Shown here piece after piece: positions 2 to 50,335 of a DNA stretch of 54,493 bases; positions within the stretch are counted from its first letter, which is position 1, and every line of letters starts with the position of its first letter. Under the pieces are notes generated by a model that saw only the letters and a program-made list of their open reading frames with translations, was not told the DNA's origin and did no database searches. The stretch is taken from positions 62,001 through 116,493 of the forward strand of contig CAUYUJ010000235.1 in the NCBI GenBank assembly GCA_963575745.1, in the 5' to 3' direction. The DNA is from Prorocentrum cordatum. Lineage: Eukaryota. The translations under genes were made by a program, and so were the position numbers.

Positions 2-262
2 ACGGCCAAAGCCTTCAACTATGGTGCGGGCTTGATTTCTCACACGTTGGAGCAATCTGGGAAGAAGCTCACTATCACAATGGCAGGTGGCTTGAAAACG
101 TTCAAGACAAAGATAGATATGTCCACAGACGTTCCATCCCAAACGATTGCTGAAAATGGGCAAGAAGTGCTGGTGACTGGCAAATGGGATGGCAACGCTT
201 TGGTCATCCTTGGGACAAGCAAGCGTGATGGACAACCTATTCAGGCTTCGAAGCGTTATTGA
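2..262 (+). CDS. Partial FABP/lipocalin-like beta-barrel protein (5' truncated by window edge; exon or truncated copy)
   Basis: Open frame from base 2: TAKAFNYGAGLISHTLEQSGKKLTITMAGGLKTFKT...VLVTGKWDGNALVI...SKRY. The strand-turn pattern and the W-D-G-x-x-L-V and K-R-Y motifs resemble FABP. It stops before the last expected strands, so a splice (e.g. CAG|GC near 245) or a truncation is possible. Confidence 0.55.
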   Translation, partial: TAKAFNYGAGLISHTLEQSGKKLTITMAGGLKTFKTKIDMSTDVPSQTIAENGQEVLVTGKWDGNALVILGTSKRDGQPIQASKRY

Positions 263-23010: not shown

Positions 23011-23814
23011 CCCCTCGACCTGCTGGCACCAGCACGACGCAGAAGCAAAGATATACGGACGCTCAAGCAGTTTTGAGTTTTGTGGCCGACCTTACAGTAA
23101 GGACGGAGTCTTTCGCCGACACCACCCCGAACCCCCCCCCCCCCCCCCCCTTGCCGGGAGGAGAGGGAGAGGAGGAGGAGCGTTGGCCCCCAGATGAAGG
23201 TACCGAGTTGCCCTGCAGAGACCCCACCTGGTTAGTCTCTCAGGGCTTGCCGTTTCTTGCCTCCGCTGCGGACGCAAAGCCGCCGCGAGGAAGGGGCGCG
23301 CAATATTCAGATTCCAAGAGTGTCTGGGCCGCGCGGTCTGTAGGAGGCCAGGAGGCCAAGTTCCCCCTCCTCCTCCGAATCCCCCCTCCCCCACAGGTAA
23401 TAAAAACTTGTTCCGAGGCCGCGCGCTCTGGAAGACAGGGCCCTTTGCGTTCTGCTAAAACTGCGGAAGTTTCTCGTCGCTCACGTTGAGGGGTCTGGCC
23501 GAAATCTGCAAGTTCACACCTGCAGATGAGAATGCTAAGACCCGCAGGAACCGCCTGCGACAGGGCAGGTACCCCAGGGAGAGTGAGCAGCACGCAGACC
23601 CGCGGGAGTTAGGCACCGAGGAGGTCCAGAGGTTCGAGGCCGACCTCGGACCCCTCGTGCCCGCTCCTGATGCTGCTGCTGCTGCCCCTCCCCTGGCATA
23701 GTAATCGTCTCCTCGCGCTGCGCGCGCCTGCCGCTGCTGGCCCGCCTCGCCGCCCATCCCGCCCATTCCTCCTCCTCCTCCTCCTCCTCCCCCTCCCCCT
23801 CCTCCTCCTCCTCT

Positions 23815-23836
23815 TCCGTAGCCATTTTGGCTCAAG
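23815..23836 (+). other. Full-length dinoflagellate spliced leader (DinoSL)
   Basis: TCCGTAGCCATTTTGGCTCAAG is a 22/22 match to DCCGTAGCCATTTTGGCTCAAG. It is followed by GGGCCC, not a GT donor. Confidence 0.95.
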
Positions 23837-26800
23837 GGGCCCGCTCCTGAATTGCTCCACCTCGCTCGAACATGGGCAGCAGAGCCTTCCCCCGTACCAA
23901 TTCAGGCACCCGTTCGCCTTCCTCCCGGCTGCTTGCCAGGCACCCGAGCACATGGTACCTCTCTACTTGTCACTTGCCGCCGCCGTGGCAGCCTCGGCCC
24001 GCGATTCGTCGGGCTCCGCCGATGACCGCGCGAGGAATGCGGGCGTCGCCGACACCGCCGCGCCCAAGCTGCCGCTGAGAAACAAATTACCCGAGACGCC
24101 ACTGCCATCGCTACACTGGCCGCCATAGACGCAGTCGTGGCCCTGGCTTCTCTTGCCGGCGCCGGCCGGCCTTCTGCTGATGGCGACGGACGCGATGAAA
24201 CATTTCAGGGACCTCAAGACCCGTTCCAAGGACGTCAAGACCCTTAGCGCCACCGCGCCGCCCAGCTCGCATCAGCAGCTCCTGCTGCTGCCGCGGCCAT
24301 GGCGCCTGCAGCGGCTCCAGGTGGTGGCTTTGCTTGTCTCTGGCCCGCTGGCGCGGCTGGTGCTGGGTCGATTGTCATTGCGGTTATGGCCCCGGGCCTG
24401 CGCACGGAAATTCAGGCTCTGCTCCAGCGCCAGGTCCGTGACGCCACGGCGGCTGTCGAGGTGCGGTCAATGCAGCTCCTGTAACAGGCCCAGCAGGACT
24501 TTGCGTCGCCTCTCCAGAACTGGGCGCAGCTGCTCAATCAGAGAACCGATAGCATTGCCACCGATGTCGCGGGACAGCGACTGCGGATCGATGCTGCTGA
24601 GACCGAGCAGCGGCGCTTGCGCCGAGAGGTCGACCGTCTCTCCGAGCTCATGGGCTTGGCCGAGCAGCAGGCGGGCCTCGTCGACATCGGGCGGCTGTCC
24701 GAGTGGGACCGGAAGGTGGGCCCCACTTTGTTTTCGATTTCGCGCCCTCGCAATGCTGCGCCCGGCAACGCACGGCGGGCACTGGCGAGCTGGACTGCCG
24801 CGACCCAGCCCGCCCGCCCCTGACATGGTCGAGTTCTACGACAACATCCCCGCCAGACGTTTCTGGATGCGCTCCAAAGGAGGGCCCCCGCGGCCCTGCC
24901 CCGGGCCCTGGCCCCCGCGGACGGGCGCAGAACGGCGCGCTCTCGAGGCCGCCGACGTGGACCGCGCCACCGCCCGCCCCCACGTCAACCCTGACAAGGC
25001 AGCGCCACCGATGCGCAAGGAGATCCACGCGAGGAAGGCGCAGCTGGCCCTGCAGAAGGTCGCCCCGAACAACAAATGGCGCGCGACCCACGCTCGCGGC
25101 GAGTGCCACTCCACCTGGGCGCCGGCGGCGCGGATCGGGATCCGCGGCAAAGGACTCCGAGTCCGACGTCCGACGCCGCTGCTGAACACCCGCGTCAAAG
25201 ACGCAGTCCTGCGCGAGCTCCGCGCCCCCACCGCCGCGGCAGACGCTGCGGAGCGGCGCGTTCGACGACCGCTTCGCCCCCTGGAGCTCGGCAGGCTCAC
25301 TCGGGACGGCAACGGTGGCGAGCTGGCGCGCCACTGGGCACCCGTGCTATCGCCGAAAGCGGCGCCTCCGCAAACTGCGCGCGCTCGCGCGCGACGCGGA
25401 GCCGCTGCGGTCATCCAGGAGGCGCGCGGCTCTAGCGGCGCGCCCTTTCGAGCGCGACTTCCGCGCCCCTTTCCCGTCGGCGCGAGCGGGCGGGGCGGCC
25501 GCGCTCTGGCCGCGATGCCCGCGCGCCGGGCAGCCCGCGCAGGCGCGCAATGCTCCGCGTTCCAGCCGCCAGAACTCCCGCTTTCCAGATCCGATCGCTC
25601 AACGCGCACGACTATGGGCTGTCGGGGCCGGCCTGGCAAAACATTGGGCGACGCTGGCAACGGGCAGCGGCGCGGGCCGCCCACGACCACCAGCGCCACA
25701 TTTACATTGCCGTGGGCGACTTCTAACTTCAACATTGGCGAGACGGCCCCGCAGAGCCACGCGCGCCGGATCCTCGGCACGCCATCTTCCGACCCCGAGT
25801 TGGCCATCACGCACATGCGTCTTCACGACAACCTTTGTGTGACATGATGGTGAAAGTAGTAACGGAAGCCCCCGCCCACTGCCACCGCCAGCGCCATTCC
25901 GCGACTTCCCCGGGCAGAATCCCCCGCGGCCCCCCCGCGAGCGACCTCGAGCAGCTCTTCGAGATGCAGCAGGGATGTCATATTCTCGTCTGAGTGATCA
26001 CGCGGTGGCGCGCCTCTGCCTGGGCTTCCAGGCGAGGCCGCCGCCGCCGGATCGCCCCCTCCCTGCCGGCATCTTCGACGGCCCCCTGTTTGGCGGCGAG
26101 CTCGGCCAGCTCCCGGAGCCGTCGCGCCTGGGCCGCCCCCCCGCGGCGTAGCGGCAACACCGCGAAAAACTCACGCGGCTGGCCGCGCAGTTCGTCCGCG
26201 AGCACTCGCAGAGGCCCCCCGGCGACGATCCCTCGCCGTCGGCGCAGCAGGGGCGCCAGGTCACGGCCCGGGCCATTGCGCGGGCGCGCTGGTGACAGGA
26301 CGCCCGCGTTGCGCACCTCGCGCGGAACTCCACCGATCTCGGCGCCTTGCGCATCGACGCGGCGAACGGCGCAGCGGCGCTCTCCGACCAGCGGGCGTTC
26401 GCTCGCGTCGCCGGAGTTGCCGCCGAGACAGAGCAGGCTCGCCTTCGCGGGATCGCCGCGCGCCGAGCTCGAGAAGCGCGGGCGGCGAACCAGCCTCTGG
26501 CTGCAGAGGGCCCGCGGCGAGCCAAACGCGTAGCTGCGCGGCGCGCCCTAGCCTGGGCCCCGTTTCGACGCGAGGTTATCTCCGCGGGCACCCGCGTCGA
26601 CGACTCGTCGTCCGGCGCCCGGGTCGCCGCCGACCCCAAGGCCACGCTCGACGCCATTGAGAGATTGGGGGCCCATCTTCACGAGGCCGCCCGCGCCCGA
26701 GGAGGAGACCGAGGCCTGCGCCAACGCGCGCGCGCCTGCCGGCGACGCCCCGGACACGGCGGCGCCCTGCGCGGCTAAGGCAACGGCCGCGCCGAGGACA

Positions 26801-28440
26801 TGGCGGCGATAGCAGCCAGAGCCAGACGGCTTCATCCATGACGCGCGGCCCCAACACCTGGCGTCACTGAGTGCCCCAATGGACCTGCAATCGCACGCGC
26901 ACTCGGGCGCCGATGCCCCCCCGCGCCCCAAAGACGCGGACGCGGCCTGCACCTCCGAGGGGAAGATCGCGGAATACGCCGTCGCGTCGCGCCGCGGGCC
27001 CGAAGACCCGCGCACCTTAGAACAATGACATCAAGGCTCTCGCCAGCACGATGGCCTTCAAGCCCCGCGGCCCAGCGCAGGAGCGGGCGCGCGAATCGCA
27101 GATGGGCTGCGTCCACGGCAGGAATGTCTGCAGCCTCGCGGCGGCCCTTTTACGCAGAAGCGCGGCGCGCGGGCGGACATTCCACCGCGGGCGGAGGGGC
27201 GAACGCCGAGCTTCAGGAGCTACGACTGCGCAGCCGCCTTCCCGAGCCTGTCCGGGAGCTGGCTCACGCGTGCACTGTGGTGGAATGGTCCTCCAATCGG
27301 TTACATCTGGACGTTCAGCGCCTGGCGACGGCTGGGTCCGCGCGGCTGGGCGACGACAGCGTTTTCCCCCTGCGATGGCCGGAGCAGCCCAGGGATGTCG
27401 GGCCTCTGGGGTGGCGCGGAAGGCGGCCATGAACGCCATGCTGCGTTCAACCTGCGCGCCCCCCCCCCCTCGCTGGGCGCCGGCTGCGTCGGCGGCTGCG
27501 CGGGCGACGCGGGCGTCGTCAGCTACGACGTACATGATATAAGCCTCCTGTCGGCGCCTTTCCGCGCCGCGGGGCGTCTCGCTGGACCTAGCGCTCAAGG
27601 CCACCAATTGCGTGACAGTGCCGCTGCATGTGATCCAGACACTTGCACTCGCGGCACGGCTCTCGGAACAATTGGGCTTGCTGGGCGATGAGCGGGGGCT
27701 GTTCAAGATAGCAGCGCGCGCGCGTCACTCAGGACTGTTCGCGGGGCGGGGTGCCGACAGAGCACGGCAATGGCACGGCCCGCGGCAGAAGTGGTGGGGC
27801 CGCATTCATCATACTCTTGCGACCAACGCTCCGCCCGACAGCGCGGTCCGCTTGCATGCCTCCCTCGCGGCGTCAACTCTTCAATTTGTGGCCCAATGTG
27901 CACCTCTACCTCCGACGGTTCGTTCGGATGTCCTGGCCCTCCACTCGCTCTTTAAAGTCCCTCCCAGTTCGTTCTCACGCCCTGAGCTTTTGAGTTTTGC
28001 CACGTGGTTCCCAGCGGGCGCCATCCCCTCCCTGGAGGTCATGAACACCGTTGCGCGCATGCGCACGGCTTTGCGCATTCTCCCAGATTAGAGGTTGGCT
28101 TTGGAGCGTCTTCGGAGTGCGACGGAAGATCCCACGTTGTAGATTGACTTCAGGAGGGGAGGGTGGTCGCCGCGATTTGGGGAGGACCCGGCGGCATTTG
28201 CCCGGCACCTGGCTGCGGAGGCGGAAGGTAGCGAGGACTTGCCGCCATTTCAGGTTAGGGATCTTCAAGCGACGCGGCAAGCGACGCAGGGCGAGCGCCA
28301 GCAGGCAGCGGTGGCGAGCAGGAAGCCCCACATCCAGCGTGCCGTCGCGCGCTCCCTCTTGCCCGACTCCTTCCCGCACCGCCTCCACCTCCTCCTTCAC
28401 CGCCGCTGCCGCGCATGGCATGGCGCGCCCAGGACGGTTT
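23815..28440 (+). mobile_element. LINE C: SL-headed degenerate non-LTR retrotransposon (ORF1-like, APE, RT; 3' end missing)
   Basis: Coiled-coil ORF1-like region about 24150-25200; VIQEARG (QE 25416-25421); VGDF 25712-25723; RLSDHAV (SDH 25993-26001); NNDIKALA..QMGCVHGR 27021-27125; YDCAAAFPS from 27221; AQGCRASG about 27390; CAGD (decayed xADD) 27497-27508; thumb region 27612-28091. Confidence 0.85.
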
Positions 28441-28600
28441 GAGGAGGAGGAGGAGGAGGAGGAAAGGAGGAGGAGGAGGAGGAGGAGGAGGTGGAGGAGG
28501 AGGAGGAGGAGGAGGAGGAGGACGCGGAGGAGGAGGACGGAAGGAGCGGGAGAGGAGGAGGAGAATACGGACGAGGGAAGAGGAGGAGGAGGAGGAGGAG

Positions 28601-28635
<35 letters not shown>

Positions 28636-28662
28636 GGAGAGGAGGAGGAGGAGGAGGAGGAC
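28440..28662. repeat. (GAG)n tract
   Basis: Directly visible. Confidence 0.95.
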
Positions 28663-28890
28663 GGTCGACGAGATGAGGGAGGTTTGGGGTGAGCTCCGCA
28701 GGGAACTCGTCCGTGTGCCACCGCCCTGGCGCCGGGCTCTCCTCAAAACGGCGCGCGGCGGGCGGGACGGCCCGTCGTGGGCGCCCGCGCGCCCTCCGAG
28801 CTCGGCCCCGTCGTTCCGGCTGCCCCCGGCGCGCGTGCCTTCGGCGATTCCCGCCGGTGCCTCGCATGCCCCTGCCTCGCTGGCCTCCTC

Positions 28891-28990
28891 GAGCTCGGAG
28901 AGGAAGAGCTCGGAGGGGAAGAGATCGGAGAGGAAGAGCTCGGAGGGGAAGGGCTCGGAGGGGAAGAGCTCAGAGGGGAAGAGCTCGGAT
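28891..28990 (+). repeat. 15-bp tandem repeat, about 6.5 copies
   Basis: Unit gagctcggag(a/g)ggaa. Confidence 0.9.
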
Positions 28991-29024
28991 GCCCCGGCGC
29001 ACGTGCCTTCGACGATTCTCACCG

Positions 29025-29185
29025 CCCACCAAACCACCCCAACCCAACCCGAAGGCTCTGATTTGCCCTCGATTTCCAGTGGGGGGGGGGGTCGGGAGAC
29101 GTCGAAAAAACACATGTGGAACCCTTACCCCCCCCCCAGCCCGAAATAGTCGGGTCTTCGGGTTGGGTTGGGGTGGTCTGGTGGG
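29025..29185. mobile_element. 161-bp MITE-like element with 30-bp inverted arms
   Basis: cccaccaaaccaccccaacccaacccgaag / cttcgggttgggttggggtggtctggtggg (1 mismatch); the inner G-run and C-run also pair. Confidence 0.7.
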
Positions 29186-30143
29186 TAGTCAGATTCCCGC
29201 CAGTGCCTCACATGCCCCTGCCTCACTGGCCTCCTCTTTTTCTCTCTCGTCTCCGACCCCTGCCGACCCGGTCCAGCGGCGGGCCGTCGGCACCTTCCCC
29301 ACCGGGCCGCTCGCTCGTCGCGCTGCCATACGACGAGTCGTGAAGCATTTGCCAACTACGAGAAGGAGGAGAAGGAGGAGGAGGATTCGAGGGATGTGGT
29401 ACCAACTACGAGAAGGAGGAGGATTTTTTTGACAAGGGATTCTTCTTGAAATGCTTTACAAGACGATTCCTATTGCCATCCTTTAAAACGTTCCTATTGA
29501 CATCCTTCACAAAAGGTTCCTTGCTATAACAAATTCAAGGAGGGCGAAGAGCGCCTGTCTTTTGCCGCCGTGGCGCGTTGCGTATCAGGCAGCGGCCGTC
29601 GCCTACCAGGAGTGAGCCGCGAGCGCAGCTCCTGGTCACTCAAGTGGTGTCGCCCCCCCCTCCTCTGATCCTCCTCTCCTCTAATCTCTTCTGATCCTCC
29701 CCTGATCCTCCTCTCCTCTGATCCTCCTCCTCCTCTCCTCTGATCCTCCTCCCCCCCTCCGTTTCCCGTGGCGTCGTCTCCCGAATCCCCCTCCTGTCCG
29801 CACCAGGGCCCGATTCGATCCATGCAGTAAAGACCCGTGCCAAGAAGCACCCTGCTTGCCTCCGGGGTGCCTTGTGTGTCTTGGGATTCGGTGGTTTTGA
29901 TATGGACAGCGTGGCGTTCCCACACCAAAAAACAATGGACGTTCTGGGGTTTCAGGGTTGGGTTTATTGTGGAAGGTCTCTTGTGGACTGGCCCCCACTG
30001 TATCCATTGGCGGTCGGCTGCCCACTCAGCTCGTCCCCTATATCCAGAGGCTGGCTTCTGTGACCGCGTAAGTCTGTCGAGGCATCTAGCCGTCGTTGTC
30101 GACGAACTGGCGCGCCGCAGTGTACTTGCCCTCCTCCTCCTCC

Positions 30144-34014: not shown

Positions 34015-34019
34015 AAACC

Positions 34020-35525
34020 ACCGATTTCGGCGTCACACCTCACACCGTTTCGTGGCCCATAGGGAAGCTCCAACCGAATGCCCCAGTGGCAGGGTTCGCA
34101 TGCCTCCCACTTTCCCCATTTCGGCACACCCCTCACACGCTTCGTGCCCCATGGGAGCTCCACCGAAGGCCCCAGTGGCAGGGTCCGCATGCCTCCCCCC
34201 ACCCTTTCGGCACACCCCTCCCACGCTTCCGGCCCCATGTGAGGCTCCACCGCGGCCCCAGTGGCAGGGTCCCATGCCTCCCCACCACCCATGTTCGGCA
34301 ACACCTGGAGCACCCCTCACACGTTTCGTGGCCCCATAGGGAGCTCCACCGAAGGCCCCAGTGGCTGCGCCCGCATGCGGTTCCACCCCCCATTCGGGCA
34401 CACCCCTCACACGTTTCGTGGCCCCATAGGGAGCTCCACCGAAGGCCCCAGTGGCTGCGCCCGCATGCGGTTCCACCCCCCATTCTGGCACACCCCTCAC
34501 ACGTTTCGTGGCCCCATAGGGAGCTCCACCGAAGGCCCCAGTGGCTGCGTTCGCATGTCTCCCCACCATCCATTTCGGCACACCCCTCACACGTTTCGTG
34601 GCCCCATAGGGAGCTCCACCGAAGGCCCCAGTGGCTGCGTTCGCATGCCTCCCACCACCCATTTCGGCACACCCCTCACACGTTTCGTGGCCCCATAGGG
34701 AGCTCCACCGAAGGCCCCAGTGGCTGCGTTCGCATGCCCCCCCACCACCCATTTCGGCACACCCCTCACACGTTTCGTGGCCCCATAGGGAGCTCCACCG
34801 AAGGCCCCAGTGGCAGGGTCCGCATGCCTCCCCACCACCCATTTCGGCACAACGCTCACACGTTTCGTGGCCCCATAGGGAGCTCCACCGAAGGCCCCAG
34901 TGGCAGGGTCCGCATGCCTCCCCACCACCCATTTCGGCACACCCCATCACACGTTTCGTGGCCCCATAGGGAGCTCCACCGAAGGCCCCAGTGGCAACGT
35001 TCGCATGCCGCCCCACCACCCATTTCGGCACACCCCTCACACGTTTCGTGGCCCCATAAGGAGCTCCACCGAAGGCCCCAGTGGCCTGGTTCGTATGCCT
35101 CCCCGACACCCATTTCGGCACATCCCTCACACGTTTCGTGGCCCCATAGGGATTTCCACTGAAGGCCCCAGTGATTGGGTTCGCATGCGCCCCCACACCC
35201 ATTTCGGCACACCCCTCACACGTTTCGTGGCCCCATAGGGAGCTCCACCGAAGGCCTTAGTGGCTGCGTCCGCATGCCGCCCCCGCACCAATTTCGGCAC
35301 ACCCCTCACACGCTTCGTGGCCCCACAGGGAGCTCCACCGAAGGCCCCAGTGGCTGCGTTCGCATGCCCCCCCCCACACCAACTTCGGTGCACCCCTCAC
35401 ACGTTTCGTGGCCCCATAAGGAGCTCCACCGAAGGCCCCAGTGGCAACGTTCGCATGCCGCCCCCACACCCATTTCGGCACACCCCTCAAACGGTTCGTG
35501 GCCCCATAGGGAGATCCACCGAAGA
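34020..35525 (+). repeat. About 90-bp tandem satellite, 17 units
   Basis: Core catttcggcacacccctcacacgtttcgtggccccatagggagctccaccgaaggccccagtgg plus a semi-variable segment of about 25 bp; period 89-91 bp in the central units. Confidence 0.95.
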
Positions 35526-37186: not shown

Positions 37187-37365
37187 GCGGAAAGGGCGAA
37201 GTTCGCGAGCGCGCGATGCGCCGAGCGCCANNNNNNNNNNNNNNNNNNNNNNNNNNNNNNNNNNNNNNNNNNNNNNNNNNNNNNNNNNNNNNNNNNNNNN
37301 NNNNNNNNNNNNNNNNNNNNNNNNNNNNNNAGAGCGGTGCCCACAGCGCTGCATTCGCAGCTGCA
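37187..37365 (+). CDS. Candidate second exon of the host gene, broken by the gap
   Basis: Polypyrimidine then ccgcag|G acceptor at 37186; AERAKFASARCAER..(gap)..ERCPQRCIR. Donor not resolved. Confidence 0.3.
37231..37330. other. Assembly gap (100 N)
   Basis: Run of N. Confidence 1.
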
Positions 37366-44914: not shown

Positions 44915-44920
44915 GTAGTG

Positions 44921-44952
<32 letters not shown>

Positions 44953-44992
44953 CGTCGTAGTAGTCGTAGTAGTCGTAGTAGTCGTAGTAGTC

Positions 44993-45054
<62 letters not shown>

Positions 45055-45057
45055 TAC

Positions 45058-45113
<56 letters not shown>

Positions 45114-45126
45114 CAGTAGTAGTAGT

Positions 45127-45158
<32 letters not shown>

Positions 45159-45607
45159 TAGTAGTAGTAGTCGTAGAAGTAGTAGTAGTAGTAGTAGTAG
45201 TACTAATAGTAGAGTAGTAGTAGTAGTAAGTAGTAGTAGTAGTAGTAGTACTAGTAGTGGTAGGGTGTATTGGTAGTAGTAGTAGTAGTAGTAGTACTAA
45301 GTGGTAGTAGTAGTCGTAGAGTAGTTAGTAGTAGCAGTAGTAGTAGTAGTGTAGTCGTAGTAAGTCGTAGTAGTAGTAGTTGTAGTAGTAGTAGTAGTAT
45401 AGTAGTAATAGCAGTAGTCGTAATAGTAGTAGTAGTGTAGTTGTAGTAGTAGTAGTAGAAGTAGTAGTACTAGTAGTAGTAGAAGTCGTAGTAGTAGTAG
45501 TAGTAGTAGAAGTAGTAGTCGTAGTAGTAGTAGTAGTAGTAGAAGTAGTAGTTGTAGTAGTGGCAGCACTAGTAGTGGTAGTGGTAGTGGTAGTGTTAGT
45601 GGTACTG

Positions 45608-45653
<46 letters not shown>

Positions 45654-45655
45654 AC

Positions 45656-45695
<40 letters not shown>

Positions 45696-45924
45696 AGTGG
45701 GGATACGAATAGGTAGTAGTACGAGTAGTACGAGTAATAATACGAGTATTATAAGCAGAAGTACTACAGGTAGTACAAGTACTCGTACGAGTCGTAGTAC
45801 AGAGTAGTAGCACTATGGAAGTAGAAGTACTAGTAATACTTTTACTACTGCTAGACTAGTAGTAATGCCATTGGTAGTACAATGTGCAGAACACGTAGTA
45901 GCAGGAGTAGTAGTAGTAGTAGTC

Positions 45925-45970
<46 letters not shown>

Positions 45971-46075
45971 CAGTAATAGTAGTAGTAGTAGTAGTAGTAG
46001 TAGTCGTAGTAGTAGTTGTAGTAGTAGTAGTAGTCGTAGTAGTAGTAGTAGTTGTTGTAGTAGCAGTAATAGTAA

Positions 46076-46113
<38 letters not shown>

Positions 46114-46155
46114 ATAGTAGTAGTAGTAGTAGTACTAGTAGTAGTAGTAGAAGTC

Positions 46156-46201
<46 letters not shown>

Positions 46202-46230
46202 TAGTAGTAGTAGTAGTAGTAGTAGTGTAG
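44915..46230. repeat. (GTA)n microsatellite block 1
   Basis: Directly visible; shares an embedded island (gagtggggatacgaat...) with block 2. Confidence 0.95.
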
Positions 46231-48224
46231 TCGTACCAATGGTACTAGTAGCACTACTCAAGATGGGAGGGCCCGCAGACCGCATGGACGTCCGCGCGCG
46301 ATGCGCGCCGCGTCCCACTCCTGCCACATCTTTCGCACCGTCGGCGACAAGGCAGGCCATGCTGAGAGGAAACATCGAAGACTTTGTATTGATTTTTTAC
46401 AGTCAGGGTGGGCGGGCCCAGATTGACTGCCGCGCGCGATGTGCGCCGCGTCCCATTCCTGTTACGTTGTTCGCATCGTCGACGACAAGAAAGACGATGT
46501 TGAGAAGGAAAACTGCCACTTTGTATTGATTTGTTGTATTGATTTTTTGCAGTCCGGATGGGAGGTCCCGGATTGGGCCGCTATCGGCCGGAATACGAGG
46601 TAGGTGGGGGTATATAGTAATAAGGAACAAGGATGGGGGGGTTAGGGGGCAGGGGGCAGGGGGTAGGGGTCAAGCTAGCCAGCTCGAGCGAGTCAAGCAT
46701 GGCATGCCCAGTCCCACCCGCCCTCCCACAACATAAGAAACAGTGATGGCACAACTGGGGGCTGCGCGGGCATTTCAGCGTCGCAGGTCCCAGAGCGCTG
46801 ACTTCCAGGTCCCAGAGCGCCCCAGGAACGCCCCAAGAGAGCCGAGACGCCCCCGAGACGATCCGAGGGGCCTTGAGTCGCCGAAAGATCGATCCAAGAC
46901 GCCCAAGATGGCCTCCAGACGGCCGCAGACGCCGCCAAGAACCCGCGGGGAGCCTCAGGAGGCCCTCCAAAAGCCTGGACAAGCAAAAACCTCCCAGGCA
47001 TTCGTCACCCCAGGGCCTCCTGGAACGCCCCGGCGCCCAATGAATTGGCGAGCTAAAAACGTGCGCCGGGCCAAAGCGGGAGCGCAACTTTGAGAAAATT
47101 TCGTTCGGCGCCCAAGCGGGAAGATCATTTCATTCACTTCGAGCGGGGGGGGGTGTGCCGCGCCCAATTCTTGCCATGCACTTTTCCGGGGTGGACGACA
47201 AGAACAGCTATGTGGGCAGGGAAAATCAGCATGGCATTGTTGCTGACAAGTAAGGTGGCCCCTCCCGCCTTGGGGTTGCCGCAAGAGTCCGCGCGCGATG
47301 CGCGCCGCGCCCCATTCCTGCCACGCATTTCGCACCGTCGACGACAAGACAGGCCATGATGAAAGGAGAAACGGTAACTCTGCATTGTTTTTAACAGTCA
47401 GGATGGGAGGGCCCGCGGCCCGCATGGACGTCCGCGCGCGATGCGCGCCGCGTCCCACTCCTGCCACATAATTCGCACCGTCGGCGACAAGGCAGGCCAT
47501 GCTGAGAGGAAAAAGCGGAGACTTTGTATGGATATTTTACAGTCAGGATGGGCGGGCCCGGATTGACGGCCGCGCGCGGGATGTGCGCCGCGTACCATAT
47601 GTGCGCCGCGTCCCACTGCTGCCACATATTTCGCACCGTCGGCGACAAGGCAGGCCATGCTGAGAGGAAAAAACGAAGACTCTGTATTGATTGTTTACAG
47701 TCACGATGGGCGGGCCCAGATTGACTGCCGCGCGCGATGTGCGCCGCGTCCCATTCCTGCCACGTTTTTCGCATCGTCGACGACAAGAAAGACGATGTTG
47801 AGAAGAAAAACTGCCACTTTGTATTGATTTTTGTTACAGTCCGGATGAGAGGTCCCGGATTGGGCCGCTATCGGCCGGAATGAAAGGCAGGTGGGGGTAT
47901 ATTCTAATAAGGAACAAGGATATGGGTAGGGGTCAAGCTAGCCAGCTCGAGCGAGTCAAGCATGGCATGCCCATTCCCACCCGCCCTCCCACAACATAAC
48001 AAACAATGATGGCACAACTGGGGGCAGCGCGGGCATTTAAGTGCGAGTGGAGGGTACCCCAGGACACCGCATTGACGTCCGCGCGGGATGCGTGCCGCGT
48101 CCCATTCCCGCCACGCATTTCGCCTCGTCGACGACAAGACTGGCCATGTTGAAATGAACAACGGACACGTTCCCCCTCCCCACAACATAAGAAACAATGC
48201 TGGCGCAACTGGGTGCTGGCGCGT

Positions 48225-49555
<1,331 letters not shown>

Positions 49556-50335
49556 AATGGTACGAGTAGCACTAGTCAGGATGGGAGGGCCCGCAGCCCG
49601 CATGGACGTCCGCGCGCAATGTGCGCCGCGTCCCACTCCTGCCACATATTTCGCTCCGTCGGCGACAAGGCAGGCCATGCTGAGAGGAAGAAACGAAGAC
49701 TTCGTATTGTTTTTTACAGTCAGGGTGGGCGGGCCCAGATTGACTGCCGCGCGCGATGTGCGCCGCGTCCCATTCCTGTTACGTCGTTCGCATCGTCGAC
49801 GACAAGAAAGACGATGTTGAGAAGAGAAACGGCAACTTTGTATTGATTTTTTAGAATCCGGATGGTAGGTCCCGGATTGGGCCGCTATCGGCGGGAATAC
49901 GAGGTAGGTGGGGGTAGATTCTAATAAGGAACAAGGATGAGGGGGTAGGGGTAGGGGGCGAAGTGAACCCCACCCTCCCACTCAGAGATCGTGGGGGGTC
50001 CGGGGCAGGGTTCGCATGTGGCCCCCTAGGGGGTAGTGTAGGGGGTGGGGGGTAGGGGTAGGGGGTAGGGGGGTAGGGGGTAGGGGGTAGGGGTAGGGGT
50101 AGGGGTAGGGGTAGGGGGTAGGGGTAGGGGGCGAAGTGAACCCCACCCTCCCACTCAGAGACTCAGAGATCGTGGGGGGCGAGGGGTAGGGTTCGCATGT
50201 GGCCCCCTAGCCGCTGGACGATGCGGAGAGCTCCTGCTCAACGCGCGTCGCGCCGTCGGCTCCGGCCCGCGCCGCGGCCCGGCCCCCGGGCGTCAAGGCC
50301 CCCTTCATAGCCTTTCGGAGCCGCCGGGCCCCCCC

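Follow-up and report, generated by a model that had tools for sequence, protein, structure and literature searches.

How a spliced leader, which dinoflagellate mRNAs receive by trans-splicing, came to stand in genomic DNA as the first bases of a decayed retrotransposon is the question raised by a locus of Prorocentrum cordatum. The DNA analysed (the window) was a stretch of 54,493 nucleotides (NCBI GenBank assembly GCA_963575745.1, contig CAUYUJ010000235.1, positions 62,001 to 116,493 of the forward strand), in which the remnants of a long interspersed nuclear element (LINE) follow an intact dinoflagellate spliced leader (DinoSL, or SL) at 23815-23836 on the + strand. The original prediction, made from the letters of the window, had proposed that the RNA of this element was trans-spliced and fully reverse-transcribed. 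The analysis reported here leads to the same answer with good confidence: the LINE RNA was probably trans-spliced and copied to full length, with the SL standing at the element's 5' end. In favour of it, the same layout was found at four independent metagenome loci, three of which carry a relict SL.

The sequence at 23815-23836 (+), TCCGTAGCCATTTTGGCTCAAG, is the exact 22-base DinoSL (consensus DCCGTAGCCATTTTGGCTCAAG, as quoted in PMC7245778) and the only copy in the window. When up to 3 mismatches were allowed, the 21-mer obtained by leaving out the variable first base matched the window only once, against a chance expectation of 0.01 as determined by shuffles. The 5' flank is a (TCC)n microsatellite at 23767-23814 (+), host sequence outside the element, whose array as delimited by Tandem Repeats Finder (TRF) at 23767-23817 abuts the SL. 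The T at 23815 may equally be the last base of the microsatellite or the first base of the SL, and the 22/22 DinoSL that had been noticed after a (CCT)n tract is therefore certain for 21/21 bases and consistent with 22/22. The tract itself was not regarded as special, because GAG/CCT-type microsatellites were frequently detected in the window by TRF. Directly 3' of the SL stands GGGG and not GT, as had been observed before, GT being the continuation of the SL exon in SL-RNA genes. Comparison of the window with 33 SL introns from metagenome loci gave only chance matches of 10-16 nt, and no Rfam family was detected in the window; with no SL intron, no Rfam RNA gene and no second SL, the flank is not an array of SL-RNA genes; such an array had been named beforehand as fatal to the proposal. 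The window thus holds a DNA-encoded DinoSL outside an SL-RNA gene and at the 5' end of an inserted sequence, as is characteristic of an SL-tagged retrocopy of dinoflagellates. The GC content of the window (0.605) agreed with that of the P. cordatum genome (59.7%, PMC10666404), and the one assembly gap (37231-37330) is far from the element.

The frame of open reading frame 1 (ORF1) has its first ATG at +344 from the SL end, which leaves room for a presumed 5' untranslated region (UTR) of 343 nt (23837-24179, +). A weak second SL-like motif is located at 23892-23912, 55 nt past the SL, and agrees with it at 14/21 bases. By Hamming count the motif looked rare, with 11 matches at up to 7 mismatches in ~109,000 positions, but by local alignment with shuffles the motif was not significant (p 0.14), on which account it is unproven as a genuine relict. 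Several of the best partial SL matches in the window (7-8 mismatches) arise from CCCATTTCGGCAC in the 90-bp unit of a tandem array at 34017-35524, also scored at 269 and 450 bp by TRF; they are probably due to chance.

The LINE body was identified by way of related proteins (numbered with P). At E<=1, RT (reverse transcriptase) or APE (apurinic/apyrimidinic endonuclease) was matched by Pfam in 0/31 of the region's own ORFs, and the 101 other ORFs of the window gave just two weak, unrelated matches. When the ORF at 27543-28091 was used as a HMMER query against 1.84 billion representatives, 81 proteins were obtained at E<=1e-3 (best 2.2e-10). The Pfam scan of 18 long matches revealed RVT_1 in 12 of them, three of which (P0034, P0065 and P0076) also bear a preceding Exo_endo_phos; P0039 and P0049 among the 18 are unrelated repeat proteins. 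The query aligns just behind RVT_1 and hence represents the thumb region. By tblastn of the relatives onto the window, the RT core was located at 27155-27583 and the thumb at 27588 to ~28400, one frame apart, and no other LINE was detected in the window by tblastn of the RT relatives; a more permissive tblastn (E up to 20) with the relatives at full length gave too much noise for use. No other copy of the element was found in the window by self-blastn of 23600-28500. Two of the RT-thumb matches are labelled P. cordatum. The best ones, P0001 and P0002, which are 30% identical where they match, are listed by EukProt under Pyramimonas sp. CCMP1952, and one of the two shares a 90% cluster with a protein labelled P. 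cordatum, which suggests that this data set is cross-contaminated and gives a hint that the LINE family is represented in it.

With the coiled-coil-like ORF at 24485-24823 as the query, one protein was retrieved, P0085 (814 aa, 79% identical, labelled P. cordatum). It is colinear with 24165-26857 of the window and 48-79% identical to it, although the window sequence changes frame six times and contains several in-frame stops. Its residues 4-50 correspond to 24165-24308 (56% identity, E 1e-10), 69-253 to 24605-25151 (69-136 at 79% and 139-253 at 56% identity), 328-508 to 25444-25969, 511-746 to 25954-26658 and 750-813 to 26666-26857. By these matches, a frame-broken remnant of an L1-type ORF1, with the N-terminus, the coiled coil and an RNA-binding-type C-terminal domain, was assigned to 24180-25151 (+). 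P0085 itself had no Pfam match; its residues 290-814 align to residues 57-579 of P0076 (E 9e-23), of which residues 40-305 are Pfam Exo_endo_phos. Through this chain, the stretch at 25444-26010 (+), corresponding to residues 328-530 of P0085, is therefore an APE remnant, in which a stop and a frame change interrupt the GDFN motif but SDH is preserved; the nuclease is thus APE-type, as predicted, and is located N-terminal to RT. The RT fingers and palm remnant at 26666-27583 (+) was delimited by matches to P0085 (750-813), to P0001 (residues 9-343 at 26666-27598, residues 175-338 at 27155-27583) and to P0082 (residues 681-708 at 27500-27583), with RVT_1 present in both P0001 and P0082. RT motif C reads AGD at 27500-27508 and ADD in relatives (P0082). 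The RT thumb and the C-terminal region of ORF2 follow at 27588-28418 (+), one frame further on and with two in-frame stops, so that 26666-28418 as a whole is colinear with RVT_1-bearing proteins. The claim of ORF1-like, APE and RT remnants on the same strand as the SL is in this way substantiated, through the relatives.

The best solved relatives of P0076 and P0082 were human LINE-1 ORF2p (E 1.6e-7 to 7.8e-7 and 2.7e-9 to 1.3e-8, respectively), with R2 far behind among the structure matches of P0082. The ORF1 part had no Pfam family, and Transposase_22 was not matched. A protein search with the intact ORF1 of L059, one of the metagenome loci described below, gave one near-identical protein and no distant relatives. 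The structure of this ORF1 was modelled by AlphaFold from a five-sequence alignment (mean predicted local distance difference test score, pLDDT, 71.9; predicted template modelling score, pTM, 0.39). In the model, a disordered N-terminus leads into a single long helix (63-142), behind which lie alpha/beta domains. The top nine Foldseek matches in the PDB (E 3e-5 to 1.3e-3) were all chains of the human LINE-1 ORF1p trimer, and RNA recognition motif (RRM) domains came next. A coiled coil, an RRM and a C-terminal domain are thus recognisable in the L059 model, and the remnant in the window is homologous to it. The element appears L1-like in architecture, the ORF1 assignment being made with moderate confidence.

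Metagenome contigs were scanned for the exact 21-mer, and at least 126 loci (numbered with L) were listed, with long flanks for 80; the listed loci hold 139 SL occurrences, 34 of which show the GT-type continuation. Among the matches listed, the 105 occurrences outside SL-RNA genes have at least 1 kb downstream in 51 cases (44 loci), and 29 of these loci have a GC content of at least 0.40, a filter by which AT-rich virus-like contigs are set aside. When both strands of the listed loci were searched by tblastn with 85 proteins, two matches were obtained, L008 (E 3.5e-7) and L059 (E 8.3e-5), both to the ORF1 part of P0085. A hidden Markov model (HMM) of the ORF1 C-terminal domain, made from L008, L059 and P0085, matched L037 (E 1.2e-15) and L020 (E 1.5e-12), both absent from the HMM, the next-best matches having E>4. 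A homologous ORF1 is therefore located downstream of the SL and on the same strand in 4 of the 29 testable dinoflagellate-like loci among the matches listed, and neither tblastn nor the HMM found an ORF1 upstream of the SL or on the opposite strand in the listed loci. The conserved ORF1 domain begins ~656 (L059), 723 (L008), 607 (L037) and 608 nt (L020) from the SL, and ~817 nt from it in the window; the leader from the SL to the ORF1 start codon measures 208, 278, 201 and 118 nt in the four loci and 343 nt in the window. The ORF1 proteins are 19-23% identical to that of L059, and the upstream flanks of the five loci are all different, namely (TCC)n in the window, (GT)n, a palindromic tandem repeat in L037 and two unique sequences. 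Low identity and unrelated flanks together identify the loci as independent insertions of distant family members, which probably come from different hosts. In L059 the intact ORF1 is followed by a further open frame (54 residues, no Pfam match) that runs off the contig end and, by its position, may be the start of ORF2. To judge from these sequences, the recurrence in four environmental loci suggests that such elements obtain their 5' end by trans-splicing.

Two side observations concern the 5' flanks. L006, L037 and L044, of which L037 is one of the LINE loci, have in common a palindromic tandem repeat (AAAGGACCCCGGGGTCCTTT-like) that adjoins the SL on its 5' side. Simple repeats abut the 5' side of DNA-encoded SLs at 5/67 sites outside SL genes (L019, L054, L059, L096 and L116), versus 16/3271 control windows (binomial p 2e-5), and by eye also at L005, L039, L066, L070, L112 and L114. 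The (TCC)n-SL junction of the window matches this pattern, for which target preference, junction formation or assembly bias are possible causes.

Three of the relatives carry traces of an older leader behind the full SL. In L008, AGCGATTTTGGCTCGAG stands immediately after the full SL and retains 15/17 bases of its 3' part (p<0.002 versus shuffles), with a further CCATAGCCATTT ~105 nt downstream (p 0.02). GCCATT..CTCAAG in L059 and CCATTTGCTC in L020 are both located directly behind the SL; shuffling of the whole leader did not set them apart from chance (p 0.2-0.5), and they were taken as probable relicts because they start exactly at the junction. A full SL with a trimmed relict behind it is ascribed to a transcript whose DNA-encoded SL was trans-spliced again (PMC7245778, PMC12014239). 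As read from the sequences, the relicts in three relatives indicate repeated rounds of splicing and retrotransposition in the family, an indication that comes from the relatives and not from the window copy.

Four other explanations of the junction were weighed. It is unlikely that the SL and the LINE met by coincidence, the SL belonging to an unrelated retroposed host mRNA fragment (~23837-24160) that by chance precedes, on the same strand, a LINE truncated at its 5' end. Dinoflagellate genomes commonly contain SL-tagged retrocopies (PMC5585692, PMC6050394), and homology to P0085 is seen from 24165 onward only. However, the predicted protein P0085 itself begins where the homology begins, so that the coding part of the LINE has not been shortened at its 5' end, and in four loci an SL precedes the start of a homologous ORF1 by 118-278 nt, on the same strand and at a near-constant distance.

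The chance is slight that the SL was acquired during reverse transcription, the enzyme having copied an unspliced LINE RNA to its 5' end and then continued on an SL RNA or a free SL exon. LINE reverse transcriptases are known to switch templates at this point, as when U6-L1 chimeras form in mammals, and the SL-GGGG join has no sequence feature that excludes such a switch. A switch to the SL RNA would nevertheless bring along the SL intron or odd joins, whereas the 22-nt exon alone is present, and the trimmed relicts behind the full SL in L008, L059 and L020, which a switch would not produce, are the pattern ascribed to renewed trans-splicing (PMC7245778, PMC12014239).

A similarly small probability was given to a leader that is transcribed and not spliced on, in which case a promoter of the element itself would start at or near the encoded SL and the RNA would mimic a trans-spliced mRNA. 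Giant-virus contigs, in which the exact SL is set between a promoter-like motif and ORFs (106/131 sites), speak for it, since they show the use of a DNA-encoded SL leader elsewhere. Such a promoter would, however, leave unexplained how the SL first arrived and why three relatives carry a full SL plus a relict; moreover, the upstream flanks are wholly different between the loci, which thus have no upstream promoter in common. A self-transcribed SL leader is possible as an additional feature. Finally, insertion into an SL-RNA gene in the manner of CRE, SLACS, CZAR and NeSL, which exist in other trans-splicing organisms, with the SL as target DNA, is scarcely credible in view of the APE-type nuclease, the microsatellite flank, a window in which no SL intron, second SL or Rfam RNA gene was found, a whole exon on one side only, and five different upstream flanks at the five loci.

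The giant-virus contigs are an observation in their own right. Many SL-bearing metagenome contigs are AT-rich and giant-virus-like (L002, L003, L017, L018, L043, L047 and L061-L063), with Pfam matches to RNA polymerase Rpb2, the Pox_A32 packaging ATPase, DUF5847, PIF1 helicase and DUF4116 repeats; in the metagenome contigs, 13/16 ORFs behind a virus-like SL are GC-rich islands. In IMG/VR the exact 21-mer was found at 131 distinct sites in 119 loci (L127 onward), nearly all in giant-virus metagenome-assembled genomes (MAGs) and mostly in a few of them with dozens of sites each. At these sites an A precedes CCGTAG in 125/131 cases and GT follows the SL in 3/131, a first-ATG ORF of at least 80 residues follows the SL in 99/131, and AAAATTGA occurs at most 120 nt upstream of the SL in 106/131, versus 5% of control windows. 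We take AAAATTGA to be the mimivirid early promoter motif. The viral SLs may imitate the leaders of host mRNAs, or may have come in with host cDNAs that were captured, or both may apply. No paper on the DinoSL in giant-virus genomes was found in the literature searches.

Several points weigh against the trans-splicing of the LINE RNA as the origin of the junction. The window copy has no relict SL adjacent to the full one, nor does L037; a relict is not required in a first-generation copy. The homology to relatives begins at 24165, and 23837-24164 was assigned to the element by analogy with the other loci, so that this part belongs to it presumably. The 5' end of this particular family is seen in one copy, the window being without a second. 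The contigs of the four relatives end before APE and RT, and their LINE nature rests on the homology and fold of ORF1 and on the 54-residue frame of L059. The TM-scores of the ORF1 fold matches are low (0.20-0.24 by query and 0.31-0.36 by target), beside the pTM of 0.39. As the four loci were selected by their SL, they are uninformative on the share of LINE copies that start with one. At the other end of the element, neither a poly(A) tract nor a target-site duplication was recognised, the 3' end being unlocated and the search for a duplication swamped by microsatellite.

The window copy is a dead, roughly 5-kb L1-like LINE. At least 6 frame changes and 6 in-frame stops were counted between 24605 and 28418, ADD has become AGD, and no ORF is intact. 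About seven indels and six stops in 3.8 kb correspond to a divergence of a few percent, and the divergence of the body since inactivation would be ~2-4% by rough estimate. At a divergence of 3%, roughly every second stretch of 22 bases would show no change, likewise a rough estimate that was not computed on copies. The intact SL beside decayed ORFs had been taken as a hint at re-mobilisation in trans; at a divergence of a few percent it would need no special explanation, and this part of the original prediction was given up.

The limit set at 28440 for the element also had to be revised. Residue 744 of P0050 is located at 28418, and the homology picks up at residue 752 from 28670; the last detectable piece of ORF2 is at 28670-28762 (+; P0050 752-782, 45% identity, E 8e-4, one protein). 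The element therefore extends past 28440, and the (GAG)n microsatellite at 28441-28661 (+), detected by TRF, has probably expanded inside the C-terminal region of ORF2. No 3' terminus could be recognised; it must fall between 28762 and ~29019, where a high-copy repeat begins.

The composition of the element body (23837-28418: GC 0.696, CpG observed/expected ratio 1.14) differs from that of the flanks (GC 0.63) and of the rest of the window on either side (CpG ratio 0.77-0.84). The DNA run X1 contains 9% of the sampled words; its contigs are short, mostly <95% alike and of low depth over the element, and they are uninformative at the SL junction, where the repeat at 23758-23825 was skipped. By the summed depth of X1 contigs, which was ~15,500 at 28942-29208, ~9,000 at 29743-30000, 160-390 at 23068-23601 and <10 over the LINE body, the element is flanked by high-copy repeats. 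Elsewhere in the window, two (GTA)n arrays of ~440 copies each are located at 44915-46235 and 48223-49554, flanked by related 140-160-bp repeats at 47287-47754 and 49610-49879.

If the LINE RNA was trans-spliced, the following course of events may be envisaged. A source copy would have been transcribed, and trans-splicing, as undergone by other nuclear mRNAs, would have joined the 22-nt DinoSL to the transcript at an AG located upstream of the present 23837. The capped, SL-bearing LINE mRNA would then have been reverse-transcribed to its very 5' end, and the cDNA inserted beside the (TCC)n tract, probably by target-primed reverse transcription, with the SL as the first 22 bases of the new copy, which decayed afterwards. 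In the related elements, the DNA-encoded SL would supply its own AG for the next round and be spliced again in later rounds, with a relict left behind each new full SL.

A wider proposal, which we put forward tentatively and hold to be possible but doubtful, is that dinoflagellate L1-like LINEs have abandoned an internal promoter, and that the encoded SL serves as a portable trans-splice acceptor by which any read-through transcript is cut and capped to yield a full-length LINE mRNA, each copy being splice-ready. The locus suggests a possible way for a LINE to dispense with an internal promoter, in which host trans-splicing would define and cap the 5' end and transcription might be supplied from outside; it also implies that LINE reverse transcriptases can copy their RNA all the way to its 5' terminus. 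In dinoflagellate genomes, retrogenes bearing SL relicts number in the thousands, and the machinery of their retroposition is called unknown (PMC5585692, PMC6050394), LTR (long terminal repeat) Ty1/copia elements being favoured in PMC6050394. Since L1-like LINEs, which comprise an ORF1p-type chaperone, an APE nuclease and RT, carry the same signature of a full SL plus a relict, they are a concrete candidate for it. No explicit description of LINEs beginning with the DinoSL was found in the accessible text of the literature searched (including PMC3229502, PMC8045281, PMC11453091 and PMC3942190; supplements and subscription-only papers excepted), the nearest statement being that the gene ontology (GO) term 'RNA-dependent DNA replication' is enriched among SL-relict genes (Song et al. 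2017, PMC5585692). If the proposal is true, these LINEs would be the long-sought machinery by which SL-tagged retrogenes are mass-produced, and perhaps also the source of SL-tagged inserts in giant viruses.

Among known systems, the elements CRE, SLACS, CZAR and NeSL are similar in that a LINE adjoins spliced-leader sequence. These elements use a restriction-like endonuclease, and their insertion splits the SL-RNA gene; the element described here differs by its APE, by the whole SL exon on the 5' side only and by unrelated flanks, and does not belong to them. In LINE-1 the 5' end is defined by an internal promoter in the 5' UTR. Human and mammalian LINE-1 (ORF1p 2ykq; ORF2p 8c8j, 8uw3 and 8sxt) share with the present element a coiled-coil and RRM-type ORF1, APE and RT in this order, whereas a host spliced leader stands at the 5' end here and the identity is very low (ORF2p E ~1e-7 to 1e-9). 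SymbioLINE-Dnmt and other LINEs of Symbiodiniaceae (de Mendoza et al. 2018, PMC5890265) are likewise two-ORF LINEs abundant in dinoflagellates; the ORF1 of SymbioLINE-Dnmt, however, is a DNA methyltransferase, and the term 'spliced leader' is absent from the main text of that paper. L1Tc/ingi of trypanosomes are APE-type LINEs in a trans-splicing host as well, but their internal promoter Pr77 drives abundant unspliced transcripts (PMC1874656, PMC8190864), the opposite solution to the trans-spliced 5' end suggested here. The SL-relict retrogenes of dinoflagellates (Slamovits and Keeling 2008, as cited in PMC6050394; Song et al. 2017, PMC5585692; PMC12014239) share with the element an encoded SL at the 5' end of an inserted cDNA and, with its relatives, a full SL plus a trimmed relict after repeated rounds; they differ in that the tagged RNA is that of a host gene, whereas here it is that of an autonomous LINE, which supplies the reverse transcriptase.

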